Origin: Nitrospirota bacterium
Lineage (GTDB): Bacteria > Nitrospirota > Thermodesulfovibrionia > Thermodesulfovibrionales > Dissulfurispiraceae
DNA length: 64,000 nt
Assembly: GCA_963710375.1 (NCBI GenBank)
Contig: CAVPZX010000005.1
Location: 461,823 to 525,822 of the forward strand
Reading direction: 5' to 3'
Position 1 is the stretch's first letter. Every line of letters begins with the position of its first letter. The notes under the pieces are model-generated. The model saw only the letters and a list, made by a program, of their open reading frames with translations. It was not told where the DNA came from and did no database searches. The position numbers were made by a program, and so were the translations under genes. Positions 37,874 through 44,017 of this stretch are shown one piece after another.

Positions 37874-39139
37874 ATGAAAATGACCAGTATGGACATCTCC
37901 GTCCTGTACGTCGAAGACGAGTCGCAGACCCGCGACAAGATAGCCAGAATATTAAAACGTGAGGTCAAATGCTTGTACCTCGCGGAAAACGGTAAAGAGG
38001 GCCTCGCCCTGTTTGAACGTCACCATCCTGATATCGTGATAACAGATATCAAGATGCCGGTGATGGATGGACTTGAGATGGTGGAGAAGATAAAGGCTGT
38101 CGACAAGAATATTCACGTTATTCTCACTACAGCCCACGGCGAGGCTGATTCCTTCATTAAATCCATCAAGGTAGGTGTTGACAGGTACCTGCTGAAACCG
38201 GTTGACGTGTCCATTCTGATCCAGACCCTCAAGGAGATGGCCCAGATTATCGGCATTGCGCGGGAACTGAAGGAAAAGACCGCCCTTCTGGAGGAATACA
38301 AAAAAGCTGTGGATGAGAGCAACATTGTCTGCAAGACTGATATTGAGGGAAAGATCACATATGTAAACGACCAATTCTGCAAAGCATACGGTTACAACAG
38401 AAAGGAGATCCTCGGCAAGGCCTACAAAGTTATCCTGCACCCGCCGGCTAACGAGGGGCTGTTGCAGGAGCTGCAATCCACTATGGCTTCCAAGAGGATA
38501 TGGAAAGGCATTCTGGAGCACGCGAAGAATGGCGGTAATAGTTATTTCGCGGACATGACTATCATACCAATCCTGAGCGCGGATGGAGAGATAATGGAGT
38601 TTATCTTTATAGGCCACGATGTGACGGAACTCGTCGATGGCACTGAGCGGCTTAAACAGTTGTCCGCCACCGATATCCTTACACAGATTTACAACCGGAT
38701 GGCTTTCAACGACTTCCTTGAAGCGGAACTGCAAAGGGCCCAACGGTACAGTACAGGAATGTCTCTCATCATGTTCGACATCGACCATTTCAAAATCGTC
38801 AATGACACATATGGGCACCTGGCCGGAGATGAGGTGCTGAAGACCCTGGTCAAGGTGGTACAATTGAGCATCCGGAAGGTGGATATCTTAGCCCGGTGGG
38901 GCGGAGAAGAATTTATGATACTGGCGCCGGAAGCGGCGCTGGAAGCGGCATGCGAACTGGCCGAAAGGCTGCGTAAGGAGATCGAGGCCCATGTCTTCTC
39001 TACCGCAGAAAAGATTACCGTAAGCATTGGGGTCACTACTTACCGGGACGGCGACTCCGCAGACTCCATTATCACGAGAGTGGACAACGCTCTTTACAGG
39101 GCCAAGGAGAACGGAAGGAACAGGGTTGAAATCGGATAA
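37874..39139 (+). CDS. REC-PAS-GGDEF diguanylate cyclase
   Basis: VLYVEDE, DIKMP, PAS segment, RWGGEEF. Confidence 0.93.
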   Translation: MKMTSMDISVLYVEDESQTRDKIARILKREVKCLYLAENGKEGLALFERHHPDIVITDIKMPVMDGLEMVEKIKAVDKNIHVILTTAHGEADSFIKSIKVGVDRYLLKPVDVSILIQTLKEMAQIIGIARELKEKTALLEEYKKAVDESNIVCKTDIEGKITYVNDQFCKAYGYNRKEILGKAYKVILHPPANEGLLQELQSTMASKRIWKGILEHAKNGGNSYFADMTIIPILSADGEIMEFIFIGHDVTELVDGTERLKQLSATDILTQIYNRMAFNDFLEAELQRAQRYSTGMSLIMFDIDHFKIVNDTYGHLAGDEVLKTLVKVVQLSIRKVDILARWGGEEFMILAPEAALEAACELAERLRKEIEAHVFSTAEKITVSIGVTTYRDGDSADSIITRVDNALYRAKENGRNRVEIG

Positions 39140-39158
39140 TTTTCAGGGACTGGCCAAC

Positions 39159-41006
39159 GTGGCTGAAAAGTTTCTGGAGAATATTGTGGCTGCGGCCCTG
39201 GAAGATTATGAGCCCAGGCAGCCCCAAATGGACATGATGCGCGCCTGTGCCGGGATGATTGAAAAGGGCGGCACTCTTCTGGCAGAAGCGGGCACCGGCA
39301 CCGGCAAAACATTCGCTTATCTTATTCCGCTGCTTGCATCTGGCGGCAGGGCTGTTATTTCTACGAGGACAATCAATCTCCAGGAGCAGATTGTATCAAA
39401 AGACCTGAAGTTCCTTTCGGGCCTGAAACCGTTTGACTATGCTATCGCAAAAGGCCGGGGCAATTATCTTTGCCTGAGGAGGCTTAATTCATTCAGGACT
39501 TCAGAAGAGCGCGAAAATGAGGAATACGCTGAGCTGCTGAGGTGGGCGTCCAGAACAGGAACAGGGGACATAGAAGATTACGGGTTCAGACGGGTGCATA
39601 TATGGGACAAGGTTTGCTCTGATTCCGATGCATGTAAGGGCAACCAGTGCGCTTTTTTTTCCCAATGCTTCTACTTCACCGCCAGGGGGCAGTGGGACAA
39701 GGCACAGATAATCGTGGCGAACCATGCCCTGGTCGGAATTAATGCATTATTTGATCGTGATGCGCGGCTGCTGCCCAAAGCAGATATGCTGATTATCGAC
39801 GAGGCGCATGCGCTTGACAGCGTGCTTTCTGATGTGGCGGGCCTTTCTTTATCAAACAGAGGATTCGAAATAATCATGAACAGACTGCTTAAACTTGACG
39901 ACAAAGGTACATACAGGGGACTTCTTTCACAAACTCCTGATCTGTTTCAGGCTGTTGAATCGCTCAGGACAGAAATGGGACTTTTTTGGATAAAGGTAAA
40001 AAATGTTGCAAAACACAGGGAGACGATTAAGGGGACTTTTGAGCTGAAAGGTCAATTAATCAGACTTGCTAACGCCATAGAGGGGCTTATAGGGAATATG
40101 GTAATCTGCACTACAGGACTTTTCCAGGAGGATGATGAGCTTGAGATCAAGGCATCGATAGTAAAGCTAAAGTCATTCGCGGAAGGGATGGATGCATTCA
40201 CCGATGGATTGGATGGTTTTGTCCGCTGGGCCGATATAGAAGAAAAAAGAATTGCTCTCAGGATGGCGCCGGTCTATCCGAAAGATTTTATGATGCGGCA
40301 CATCCTGCCTGAGTACCGGTCGGTCATCCTTGCTTCAGCCACGCTTTCGGTTGCCGGGGATTTCGGTTTCGTCACCAAAGTGCTCGGACTTGAGGGCGCT
40401 GAAACACTGTCAGTCCCATCTCCATTTGATCTCGGGAAACAGATAGCAGTACATATTAAAAAGGGAATAAATCTCAAACTGCCGGGCAGCAGCGGGAAGC
40501 TTGCCGGCGTAATTATTGAAGAGGCATCAAAAAGGGACGGCGGCATCCTGGTGCTTTTTACATCACGGGAAAGCATGCGTGCAGCTTGGGCTATTGCCAA
40601 CGGAGCGTTGCAGGATATGGGGCTGAATCCAATGGTGCAGGGGGAGATGCCGAACAGGTTGATGCTCGAAAAAATGCGGGGAAGTGAAAATAGTGTTATT
40701 TTCGGCCTGGATTCGTTCTGGGAAGGAGTGGATGTGAAGGGAGACTCACTGAAGTGCCTGATTATTGCAAAACTCCCGTTTGAAGTACCTACGGAGCCTG
40801 TTGTTAAGGCACGGACCGAGGAGATAGAAATGGGAGGCGGTAATGCATTTTATGAATACTCGCTGCCGCGGGCAGTGCTAAAATTCAAGCAGGGGTTCGG
40901 CAGACTGATAAGGTCGAGTAGTGACAGCGGAAGGGTTATCATCTGTGACGAGAGAATCGAGACAATGGCATACGGGCGCATTTTTATGGAAAGCATACTG
41001 CGGTAA
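39159..41006 (+). CDS. DinG/YoaA family ATP-dependent helicase
   Basis: EAGTGTGKT, KGRGNYLC, DEAH, FWEGVDV, QGFGRLIR. Confidence 0.92.
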   Translation: MAEKFLENIVAAALEDYEPRQPQMDMMRACAGMIEKGGTLLAEAGTGTGKTFAYLIPLLASGGRAVISTRTINLQEQIVSKDLKFLSGLKPFDYAIAKGRGNYLCLRRLNSFRTSEERENEEYAELLRWASRTGTGDIEDYGFRRVHIWDKVCSDSDACKGNQCAFFSQCFYFTARGQWDKAQIIVANHALVGINALFDRDARLLPKADMLIIDEAHALDSVLSDVAGLSLSNRGFEIIMNRLLKLDDKGTYRGLLSQTPDLFQAVESLRTEMGLFWIKVKNVAKHRETIKGTFELKGQLIRLANAIEGLIGNMVICTTGLFQEDDELEIKASIVKLKSFAEGMDAFTDGLDGFVRWADIEEKRIALRMAPVYPKDFMMRHILPEYRSVILASATLSVAGDFGFVTKVLGLEGAETLSVPSPFDLGKQIAVHIKKGINLKLPGSSGKLAGVIIEEASKRDGGILVLFTSRESMRAAWAIANGALQDMGLNPMVQGEMPNRLMLEKMRGSENSVIFGLDSFWEGVDVKGDSLKCLIIAKLPFEVPTEPVVKARTEEIEMGGGNAFYEYSLPRAVLKFKQGFGRLIRSSSDSGRVIICDERIETMAYGRIFMESILR

Positions 41007-41046
41007 AAGAAGTTGATCGAACAATGGCTTTTTGAAAGGAGAATCG

Positions 41047-41403
41047 ATGGCAAAAACATTTACATTGTTTCTGTCCACATCGCCGTATTCTTACGAGAAC
41101 ACTGTTAGCGCCGTAAAAATCGCTGAATCTGCTTTAAACAAAGGTCATACAGTTAATCTCATTGCATCAGGGGACGGCACTTATTGTTTTCTCAAAAGCC
41201 AGAAAGCTAAAGGCATACTTAATGCCGAGGAGGCATTTTCAGGGCTTATTCAAAAAGGACTGAGGGTGTTTATTTGAGGAGGGTGCATGAACTTTCGCCG
41301 TGCAGCGAAAGATAATTACCTCGATGGAGCTGAGGTAGGGTCACTGAAGGGTCTTTTCAAAACTCTCTCGGAGACGGATATCTGGCTTAATCTTGGAGCA
41401 TAA
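41047..41403 (+). CDS. DsrE/TusD family selenoprotein (UxxC), 118 aa
   Basis: LSTSPY...GHTVNL...DGTY; after in-frame TGA 41275-41277 the frame continues GGCMNFRRAAKDNYLDGAEVGSLKGLFKTLSETDIWLNLGA to TAA 41403. Confidence 0.88.
41292..41311 (+). promoter_or_regulatory. Putative bacterial SECIS hairpin
   Basis: ctttcgc-cgtgca-gcgaaag, a perfect 7-bp stem starting 14 nt 3' of the UGA. Confidence 0.65.
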
Positions 41404-41416
41404 TACGGAGGACTAT

Positions 41417-41770
41417 ATGTCGAAGATCATAATGATTCTGAGAAGGCCTCCTTATGGAGACATAAATGCGGCAGAGGCTGTGAGGCATGCAATGGGCGGC
41501 ATTGCGGATGATCTGAACATCCATCTTGTTCTGATTGATGGCGGAGTGCTCTTGACTAAAAAAGGTCAGGACGAGTCAGGGACGGGTTTCACGAATCTTG
41601 AGGAAGCATTAAAGGATTGCATAGATATGGGGGTAGAAGTGTCTGCTGAGGAACTTTCTTTAAGGGACAACTGTTTAGAGCCGCCGGATATCGTTGACGG
41701 GGTCAAGATCATAAGCGAGGCCGAAATAGCTCAACTTTTGACTCATGCAAAGACAACGATGATTTTTTAG
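41417..41770 (+). CDS. DsrF/TusC family protein
   Basis: ILRRPPYG...EAVR, LIDGGV, SLRD, C-terminal TMIF; RBS ggagga. Confidence 0.8.
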   Translation: MSKIIMILRRPPYGDINAAEAVRHAMGGIADDLNIHLVLIDGGVLLTKKGQDESGTGFTNLEEALKDCIDMGVEVSAEELSLRDNCLEPPDIVDGVKIISEAEIAQLLTHAKTTMIF

Positions 41771-41789
41771 AGAAAAGGAGGAGAAGTGC

Positions 41790-42071
41790 ATGATAGTGAT
41801 AGTGAAAAGCGCCCCTGATACACCGGACGGACAAAGAGGACTAAAACTGGCGAGGGATATGGCAGCAGATTTGATTCTTCTTCAAAACAGTGTTTATTTT
41901 GTCCAAGGGCAAAGACTTGAGGACTTTCCGGGCAAGATATATGTCGTTGATGAAGACTTGAGACTCAGGGGTTTGAATGACAGCCGGTTTAGAAACGATT
42001 TTGAAATAATCAATTACGATACCGCTGTCGATTTAATGACCGAAGGCAATAAAGTAGTAGGGATGTTTTGA
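41790..42071 (+). CDS. DsrH/TusB family protein
   Basis: LILLQNSVY, YVVDEDLRLRG, IINYDTAVDL. Confidence 0.85.
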   Translation: MIVIVKSAPDTPDGQRGLKLARDMAADLILLQNSVYFVQGQRLEDFPGKIYVVDEDLRLRGLNDSRFRNDFEIINYDTAVDLMTEGNKVVGMF

Positions 42072-42135
42072 CAAGCGGCCTTGGTGTGAATTCCATGAAA
42101 AAGGGTCACATCTCTGCAACCCTTTGATTTTCAAG

Positions 42136-42210
42136 CGTCCCCAAAGGGATTCGAACCCTTGTTACCGCCGTGAAAGGGCGATGTCCTAGGCCGGGCTAGA
42201 CGATAGGGAC
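42136..42210 (-). tRNA. tRNA-Glu (TTC)
   Basis: Anticodon arm tcgcc-ctTTCac-ggcgg, GGTTCGAATCC T-arm. Confidence 0.93.
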
Positions 42211-42254
42211 ATCAGATTACAATGCGTAACGTATTGCTCGTTACGGTCTTCAAG

Positions 42255-42327
42255 TGAGCCGCGTTGGATTCGAACCAACGACCCACGCCTTAAAAGGGCG
42301 TTGCTCTACCAACTGAGCTAGCGGCCC
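42255..42327 (-). tRNA. tRNA-Lys (TTT)
   Basis: Anticodon arm acgcc-ctTTTaa-ggcgt, GGTTCGAATCC T-arm. Confidence 0.93.
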
Positions 42328-42567: not shown

Positions 42568-42751
42568 TAGGACTCGCGAATAAATAACTTGTGCATTCAG
42601 GCGCTCAGATTTGGGTCAGATTTGGCTGATCCGACTGAGCAAAACCGCAGGCGTAGCAGAGCTACGCTGAGGATTTTGAGACTGAGGATCGGGCAAAGAT
42701 GGCCTGAAGATGAGATGCATCAAGGTATAAGTTATTTATTCGCGAGTCCTA
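42568..42751. mobile_element. MITE-like palindromic element (184 bp)
   Basis: 23-bp perfect terminal inverted repeats taggactcgcgaataaataactt / aagttatttattcgcgagtccta, with an internal hairpin. Confidence 0.75.
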
Positions 42752-42762
42752 GGGGGCGTTAT

Positions 42763-44017
42763 ATGCATCTTTTCAATTATAAAAATGGAGAATTGTATGC
42801 TGAAGATGTGGCAGTGAAGGATATTGTTGCCAAATTCGGCACTCCTGTCTTTATTTACAGCTATAACACTCTGCTTAGGCATCTTAAGGCATATAAAGAT
42901 GCATTTGGCGGCTTTCCACACCTGATTTGTTATGCCATCAAAGCTAACTCAAACATTGCGCTTTTGAAACTGTTTGCAAAAAACGGAAGCGGTGCGGATG
43001 TTGTTTCAGGAGGAGAACTTTACAGGGCGCTTAAAGCCGGTATCCCGGCAAGGAAAATGGTATATGCCGGCGTCGGCAAAACCGGAGAGGAGATTCGGTA
43101 TGCCTTGAAAAGCAAGATTCTTATGTTTAACGTGGAATCTGAGAATGAGCTGCGGGAAATTGACAGAATTGCGGGTAAAATGAAGACAAAAGCCCCGGTT
43201 GCGCTAAGGATCAATCCTGATATAGACACCATGACCCATCCCTATATCTCTACCGGATTGAGAAAACATAAATTCGGAATCCCGATGGAGAATGCGCTCG
43301 AGTACTACAAGCTTGCACTCGACATGAAAAATGTCTCTGTTATCGGCATTCACAAGCATATCGGTTCCCAGCTCACAAAAGTTTTGCCGTTTGTTGATGC
43401 ACTCAAGAGGATACTGATGCTTATGGATGAACTTTCAAAGCACGGGGTAAAGATAGAATATCTCGACATTGGAGGTGGGTTGGGCATCACTTATTACGAT
43501 GAGACTCCCCCAAATCCAGCGCAGCTTGCGAGGAATATTTTGCCTTTGCTTAAAGACAGAAAGCTTACACTTATTTTAGAACCTGGCAGGTCTATTGTAG
43601 GCAATGCAGGCATTCTGGTTACTAAGACACTTTATCTCAAAAAAGGAGAAGATAAGGATTTTGTCATAGTCGATGCTGGAATGAACGATCTCATACGGCC
43701 TTCCATCTACAGTGCGTACCACCATGTGCAGCCTGTGCTGAAAAACCGAAAAGAGAAGATATTTGCGGATATAGTAGGTCCTATATGCGAGTCCGGAGAT
43801 TTTCTTGCTAAGGACAGGGAGACTGCAGAGCGTCATGCAGGGTGAGTATCTTGCAGTGATGAGTGCAGGAGCATACGGGTTTGCCATGTCGTCAAATTAT
43901 AACAGCCGCACAAGGGCTGCAGAGGTGATCGTAAAAGGCAAGAGCTGTTCCCTTATCAGAAAAAGGGAGATTTACAGCGATCTCGTGAAGGGCGAGAGTA
44001 TTCCGAAGTTTATCTGA
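42763..44017 (+). CDS. lysA: Diaminopimelate decarboxylase, with an apparent 1-nt insertion near 43820
   Basis: YAIKAN, HKHIGSQ, EPGR, GPICESGD; the C-terminus GAYGFAMSSNYNSR is in the +1 frame. Confidence 0.92.

Follow-up and report, generated by a model that had tools for sequence, protein, structure and literature searches.

The window, the whole 64,000-nucleotide stretch of Nitrospirota DNA that was analysed, holds three short genes in the order E-F-H whose products resemble DsrE/TusD, DsrF/TusC and DsrH/TusB (Table 1). Under translation table 11, the first open reading frame ends at its in-frame TGA. The first-pass annotation had claimed that the frame runs on past this codon to give a complete DsrE-type protein, and translation with TGA read as U bears this out: the frame gains 41 codons, reaches TAA 41401-41403 and contains VFI-U-GGC, and the product matches the Pfam DsrE family (PF02635) with an E-value of 4e-15 and 56.4 bits against a cut-off of 22.7. 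The AlphaFold model of the read-through protein has a pLDDT of 91.6. Fold comparison places it near A. vinosum DsrE (2HY5_A; Z 17.5, rmsd 1.7), TusD (2D1P_A; Z 17.3) and the CxxC protein YchN (Z 18.4), and the three are tied. The UGA had been proposed to occupy the carrier position of a DsrE/TusD-fold subunit, and in alignment U77 indeed shares its column with Cys78 of E. coli TusD and with the cysteine of A. vinosum DsrE (2HY5_A).

Table 1. Features at and beside the dsrE-like gene (positions in the window)
Feature	Position	Strand	Remarks
YoaA/DinG-family helicase gene	39027..41006	+	upstream neighbour; adjacency to trio not conserved
Shine-Dalgarno-like AAGGAG	41036..41041	+	5 nt 5' of ATG 41047; from sequence
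dsrE-like gene	41047..41403	+	118 aa with TGA as Sec; motif U77-G-G-C80
In-frame TGA, predicted Sec77	41275..41277	+	column of E. coli TusD Cys78
Cys80, second residue of UxxC	41284..41286	+	at least 90% conserved in alignment A1; 123/124 clade-A loci
Predicted bacterial SECIS	41292..41311	+	7-bp stem; 6-nt loop, CGUGCA (G at position 2), 21 nt 3' of UGA
dsrF/tusC-like gene	41417..41770	+	117 aa; PF02635, E 7e-14; carrier column without Cys
dsrH/tusB-like gene	41790..42071	+	93 aa; PF04077, E 2e-9; zero cysteines
tRNA-Glu(TTC)	42135..42210	-	convergent neighbour, outside system
tRNA-Lys(TTT)	42254..42327	-	convergent neighbour, outside system

The trio had also been described as a complete DsrEFH/TusDCB-like operon. 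The gene order and the Pfam matches sustain the likeness, but the proteins score far below the NCBIfam cut-offs for TusD, TusC and TusB (TIGR03012, 20.5 against 89.25 bits; TIGR03010, 35.6 against 94.15; TIGR03011, 39.4 against 49.2), and none of the NCBIfam models recognises the DsrE-like protein. The trio therefore falls outside the equivalog HMM definition of DsrEFH type I/TusBCD, and it possesses the DsrE fold with a reactive residue at the Cys78 position. In related loci, dsrF lies downstream of the Sec gene in 134/135 cases and dsrH is present in 119/123. Judged by synteny and fold only, E, F and H probably assemble like DsrEFH/TusBCD, and we hold this with good confidence. In the DsrF-like subunit of the window, Cys68 is almost invariant and an E-A-x-R-H motif fully so; both lie away from the carrier column.

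Related loci pooled from genomes and metagenomes numbered 201, of which 151 were kept for counts; the window itself was left out, as were 48 duplicate or low-scoring loci (3 below 70 bits) and L228, an unrelated DsrE. The site reads TGA in 146 of the 151, Cys (TGC/TGT) in 3 and lies outside coverage in 2. A search of relatives for Sec/Cys pairs also returned Cys homologues with CGTC, 49-56% identical to the Sec form, which by source name occur in Bacillota, Chloroflexota, Spirochaetota and Aminicenantales as well. Among 150 distant representatives, 123 cover the U77 column, and Cys stands there in 113 of these, 94 times as CxxC. Homologues that end at the UGA had been named as grounds for doubting a selenoprotein, and each of the best 120 database matches does end there, before the motif, yet the protein is conserved on both sides of the TGA over 41-91% identity, with a frozen hairpin. 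One close full-length protein has CGGC (P0312) and is possibly a Sec-to-Cys reversion, and four distant homologues that break off immediately ahead of position 77 (P0328, P0343, P0350 and P0427) are likely further truncated Sec forms. The Sec dsrE gene is found in 34 of 61 sampled genomes of the host's order. In reads, the window locus is present in run X1 with 0 differences at depth 17.3, and two related strains (runs X7 and X8) carry 14-15 differences over about 700 nt, all outside the TGA. Because these strains retain the TGA while differences fall elsewhere, the codon is not a sequencing slip.

The perfect 7-bp hairpin that the annotation placed beyond the UGA is present as claimed (CUUUCGC-CGUGCA-GCGAAAG), starting 14 nt 3' of the codon, and is a SECIS-like stem-loop with a G in its small apical loop, as in bacterial SECIS elements (PMC1088965). 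Its folding beats that of shuffled sequence in a 36-nt segment (z -2.76, 4/200) but not in segments of 53, 66 and 111 nt (z -1.0, -0.6 and -0.2). Its core codons are synonymously frozen in clade A (CGC 123/124, CGT 117/122, GCG 113/114) and in clade B (21/21, 20/21 and 21/21), compared with only 0.3-0.8 for most other degenerate codons. Across 30 sequences, stem positions pair in 87.6% of cells with 16 double changes, a value that kinship inflates; stem covariation exceeds 500/500 shuffles and all slid controls, a result likewise inflated by kinship. The 3 Cys loci read CGC GGY ATA AAR at the hairpin and form no stem. The in-frame TGA of the dsrE-like gene very likely encodes selenocysteine, and that SelB and tRNA-Sec decode it through the hairpin is close to certain.

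Decoding machinery of the host

A check for sel genes in the host gave a divided answer. The host assembly contains selB, selC (tRNA-Sec) and a Sec-type selD, itself bearing an in-frame TGA with a hairpin. No selA turned up in this assembly, which is rated 98.8% complete. Among relatives, selA occurs in 55/61 genomes and in 33/34 of those carrying Sec dsrE. A 246-kb contig of the same-genus genome G006 shows where it may have gone missing. The 20-100 kb part of that contig matches the host assembly (59/82 ORFs) and reaches the start of contig C5, whereas the part with selA, folD, folE and mnmG has 0/16 ORFs matched and the part with plsY, smc, hemB and dsrABC has 7/115. The host assembly is without orthologues of all these genes, which sit on the one G006 contig, and a large segment is likely missing. 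Neither dsrAB nor a true dsrC was found in the host assembly, and dsrA, though missing there, is carried by 55/61 genomes. In run X1, a selA-cooC-folE-folD block with 84-91% similarity to its G005 counterpart is spread over contigs of depth 16.6, 15.5 and 17.4, against 17.3 for the locus; this block is tied to the host organism by depth only. Because the missing segment also held core genes and a depth-matched selA block is present in run X1, the missing host selA is best read as an assembly gap, and loss of Sec decoding through selA absence was rejected on the same grounds. That the TGA is a true stop, leaving a 76-aa product or a pseudogene, or that it became undecodable after selA loss, is extremely improbable: selA is indeed missing from a nearly complete assembly and the best database matches do end at the codon, but conservation past the TGA, the frozen hairpin, the unmatched G006 segment, the depth-matched selA block and the TGA and hairpin of the host selD all stand against it.

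Operon context in relatives

The usual arrangement in relatives is an ArsR-dsrE(Sec)-dsrF-dsrH-sqr operon. SQR lies downstream in 88/107 loci, and an ArsR with several cysteines lies upstream in 104/126. Of the 88 SQRs, 83 share at least 50% identity with a protein that has 3HYV as its best PDB match (E 1e-105); we take the SQR of the Sec-trio operon to be of type I. Further downstream, 48/90 loci encode an MMPL transporter and 38/94 a DsrE2-like protein; occasional neighbours are TauE (23/151), SelD (11/151), YeeE (5/151), YedF (4/151) and an IscS-like protein (4/151). TusA stands beside 1/151 loci and DsrC beside 0/151, which leaves the trio with no genetically linked acceptor. Upstream, between arsR and tauE, there is often a gene for a small protein with weak similarity to the selenoprotein TsoC (E 1e-4; L022:1727-1945 and similar).

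Across the 61 genomes, 21/21 with the operon-type SQR also carry Sec dsrE (in one of the 21, the contig stops just past the Sec codon and truncates the gene), and 0/27 of the genomes without Sec dsrE have that SQR; the relatives are kin, and these counts overstate independence. The Cys homologues retain the ArsR-E-F-H-SQR order with a different, more distant SQR. Linkage is nevertheless incomplete, given that 19/107 loci have no linked SQR and 13/34 carrier genomes, that of the window included, lack an SQR of the operon type. The cassette has a patchy distribution, and its genes move together.

Operon-type SQR, ArsR and MMPL were not found in the host genome, and the trio stands alone in it, as does its closest homologue in G006. 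The window trio is thus detached from sqr and arsR, in a variable slot between yoaA and tRNA-Glu. In a relative with a single-contig genome (L063, G016:C1:751942-752295), SQR, MMPL and DUF1302 lie in pieces after an intact Sec trio, indicating that the trio can outlast its operon.

Relation to known DsrEFH systems

DsrE-like selenoproteins had been noted as already reported, and this is correct. The DsrE-like UxxC family (PF02635) has been catalogued since 2005 with its function uncharacterised in the sources as consulted (PMC1088965, PMC1794560 and a 2026 review, PMC13188914), and its members are classed there as thiol-based redox proteins (PMC1088965, PMC1794560). The published examples in those passages, two sequences from the Sargasso data and a protein of D. 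vulgaris, are presented without an E-F-H or SQR context. Compared by description only, they share with the window DsrE the Pfam family, the UxxC motif and a SECIS-like hairpin with an apical-loop G.

In type I DsrEFH, sulfur is bound at DsrE Cys78, and DsrH Cys20 is needed in vivo (PMC3397948). The window trio shares fold, E-F-H order and a reactive residue in the Cys78 column with A. vinosum DsrEFH (2HY5) and E. coli TusBCD (2D1P). However, its DsrE is 18-24% identical to theirs and has Sec with a second Cys in place of a single Cys (CVAAA), its DsrH, unlike that of A. vinosum, has no Cys20, and, unlike type I and TusBCD, the Sec trio is not linked to rdsrAB, dsrC, tusE or mnmA.

DsrEFH type II, or the YTD cluster, is linked to tusA and yeeE, and one subtype is common in Nitrospirota; selenium does not appear in the main text of its description (PMC13293266, 2026). 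Its DsrE carries sulfur on Cys67, the equivalent of Cys78, and in the published model SQR polysulfide feeds the trio (PMC13293266). Like the Sec trio, type II is a DsrEFH-like trio of Nitrospirota with reductive dsrAB (PMC13293266, PMC13047784). The relatives also have a distinct cluster of Cys type with the order H-E-F-tusA. In most cases it adjoins dsrMKJOP, and its DsrE is 25-30% identical to the Sec form and likewise has CxxC (CEAC); assigned by synteny rather than by the HMMs of PMC13293266, this cluster is probably type II. The Sec trio differs from it in being E-F-H with Sec and tied to sqr and arsR, whereas the probable type II is H-E-F-tusA with Cys and a separate paralog in the same genomes. 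The type II neighbourhood of tusA with yeeE or yedE is not that of the Sec trio, as the counts for TusA and YeeE given above indicate. In one type-II-like dsrE (L110:4963-5340, G013:C42), a TGA replaces the second Cys of CxxC (CEA-TGA); the gene may encode a CxxU selenoprotein, or the codon may be a single-letter error. Other Nitrospirota families (L228-L231) have a further single-Cys tusA-dsrE-F-H-tusA-dsrE2 cluster on its own tree branch.

In BigR/SqrR-type persulfide-responsive operons, an ArsR-family repressor heads SQR, sulfur carriers and TauE/YeeE transporters. The Sec operon differs in that its carrier is a DsrEFH-like trio, not a rhodanese or persulfide dioxygenase, and its ArsR scores 45 bits against the BigR model, whose cut-off is 155.

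In a tree of 59 DsrE proteins, all 27 Sec forms group as a single clade (98/90), which lies within the Cys forms that have CGTC. The Sec-containing clade is placed with the type-II-like proteins in the best tree (94/92; 91 when the tree was reduced by 14/59 rows), and a grouping with type I is also allowed (p-AU 0.43). The Sec trio is DsrEFH-like and neither type I nor probable type II, and the selenoprotein family itself is not new. For the Sec-DsrEFH-SQR operon, no paper was found in the literature searched, most subscription journals being outside its scope; passages of PMC13047784, PMC10591310, PMC12998232, PMC11033732, PMC5322559 and bioRxiv 2022.07.06.499078 do not describe the Sec trio, and their supplements could list members. 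Most Thermodesulfovibrionia are reported in one of these passages to have dsrFH without dsrE (PMC11033732). This absence could reflect a truncated Sec gene or a divergent type-II-like dsrE, as both trios score below the cut-offs.

Function of the trio

We favour the view, with a probability of roughly 0.55, that the trio is a DsrEFH-like sulfane-sulfur carrier with Sec at its carrier site, a reading built on sequence comparison, gene order and a structural model. SQR in most hosts, or an outside source, would supply polysulfide or sulfane sulfur; Sec77 would take it up as a Se-S adduct, which Cys80 would resolve, and the sulfur would then pass to TusA or DsrC or be set free as sulfide. The Cys-rich ArsR would act as repressor of the operon. 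In the window genome, where the trio lies away from sqr and arsR, it would use polysulfide from another source. The predominance of Cys in the U77 column of distant representatives, at the position of the DsrEFH persulfide site (PMC3397948), is consistent with a carrier, as are the frequent linkage to SQR and ArsR, the co-occurrence of operon-type SQR with the Sec gene, and the order kept by the Cys forms. Against a carrier stand the loci and genomes without linked SQR, the lack of a tied acceptor, a DsrH without Cys20, and the missing selA, dsrAB and true dsrC of the host assembly. A role in Dsr sulfur trafficking, also raised in the first-pass annotation, is plausible, but the conserved partner is SQR, and the dsr operon of relatives has its own Cys-type H-E-F-tusA cluster.

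UxxC fits an oxidoreductase equally well, and the second reading, which we consider a serious though clearly less probable one, is a Sec-dependent thiol oxidoreductase whose UxxC couple would reduce polysulfides, persulfides or oxidants, protecting the cell with no relay of sulfur to a pathway. UxxC/CxxC is kept throughout, the literature classes these selenoproteins as thiol-based redox proteins (PMC1088965, PMC1794560), the highest fold score, tied with DsrE, belongs to the CxxC protein YchN, and the cassette is patchy, mobile as a unit and headed by a Cys-rich ArsR. However, the dsr-linked type-II-like DsrE also has CxxC, which makes the motif compatible with transfer; the F and H partners are retained as in transfer complexes; and the regular neighbours include neither thioredoxin reductase nor a comparable electron donor.

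Selenium trafficking or detoxification (of selenide or selenodiglutathione) instead of sulfur is an unlikely third reading. The SelD, YedF, IscS-like and YeeE neighbours point towards it, but they are a minority beside SQR, the Cys forms keep the SQR link, and selenoprotein genes often cluster with selD for unrelated reasons.

The Sec trio may, tentatively, represent a third DsrEFH type, a sulfane-sulfur relay armed with selenium and coupled to SQR that gene callers overlook in hundreds of Nitrospirota, though we regard this wider claim as doubtful. It would hold its cargo on selenium as a selenopersulfide, and nominal sulfate reducers would gain, alongside type II, an oxidation or disproportionation route from sulfide through SQR and Se-persulfide to DsrC. 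HMM censuses of DsrEFH are used to label organisms sulfur oxidisers or reducers (PMC13293266, PMC10591310). The Sec branch is invisible to such censuses, its best 120 database entries all ending at the UGA, and its carriers amount to more than half of the genomes sampled in an order of soil and subsurface bacteria that mostly have dsrA, and operon linkage to SQR is usual. The natural Sec/Cys pair, whose two forms share one operon layout, offers a test of the role of selenium in a persulfide carrier.

The remaining reading, a TusBCD relay that serves s2U34 or selenouridine formation in tRNA-Glu, -Lys and -Gln, had been put forward in the first-pass annotation and is by now largely refuted; we give it very little credence. 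It draws on the TusBCD-like fold and gene order, on the presence of mnmA and on the two tRNA genes, announced as lying about 65 bp past the trio. The distance holds, the tRNA-Glu 3' end being 63 nt past the dsrH stop, but both tRNAs converge on the trio from the minus strand and therefore share no transcript with it. None of the 107 related loci with at least 1.5 kb of downstream sequence has tRNA-Glu(TTC), -Lys(TTT) or -Gln(TTG), so the synteny is not conserved. The tRNA pair sits beside lysA in 5/7 same-genus genomes, none with the trio there, and the close relative G008 has yoaA-tRNAs-lysA without the trio, with 88 nt in place of the 1128 nt of the window genome. On the modification side, selU is found in 0/61 genomes. 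mnmA is present in the host and in 52/61 genomes, 23 of those without the trio, and is a neighbour at 0/151 loci. With its CC-CxxC-C motif, the host MnmA belongs to the Tus-independent type, of which the T. thermophilus enzyme takes sulfur directly from cysteine desulfurases (PMC7025502). TusE was not found in the host, whose sole DsrC/TusE-like protein is without the C-terminal Cys, so that the host has neither the TusE and Tus-dependent MnmA of a TusBCD tRNA relay nor the selU of a selenouridine route. Both tRNA synteny and a selenouridine role were rejected on this evidence, and the adjacency, which had been suspected to be coincidental, is a chance of position.

Weak DsrC paralogs resembling the host's DsrC-like protein without C-terminal cysteines (G000:C1:96435-96779) occur in many relatives. 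A repeat search at the locus found no att-like duplication of a tRNA end, and in a promoter and terminator scan no signal relevant to the trio exceeded shuffled sequence (4 promoter-like sites, with 6.5 expected). Between tRNA-Lys and lysA, an imperfect inverted repeat with 35-nt arms (86%) spans 42568-42751; the stretch is common to G002 (L277), missing in G001, G003 and G008, and possibly a small mobile element. Beyond it, lysA (42763-44017) is seemingly split by a frameshift near 43830, an assembly indel or a pseudogene: its 360-aa ORF has unrelated terminal residues, same-genus matches mostly end at query 353-354, and a LysA-like C-terminus is found in a separate ORF at 43805-44017.
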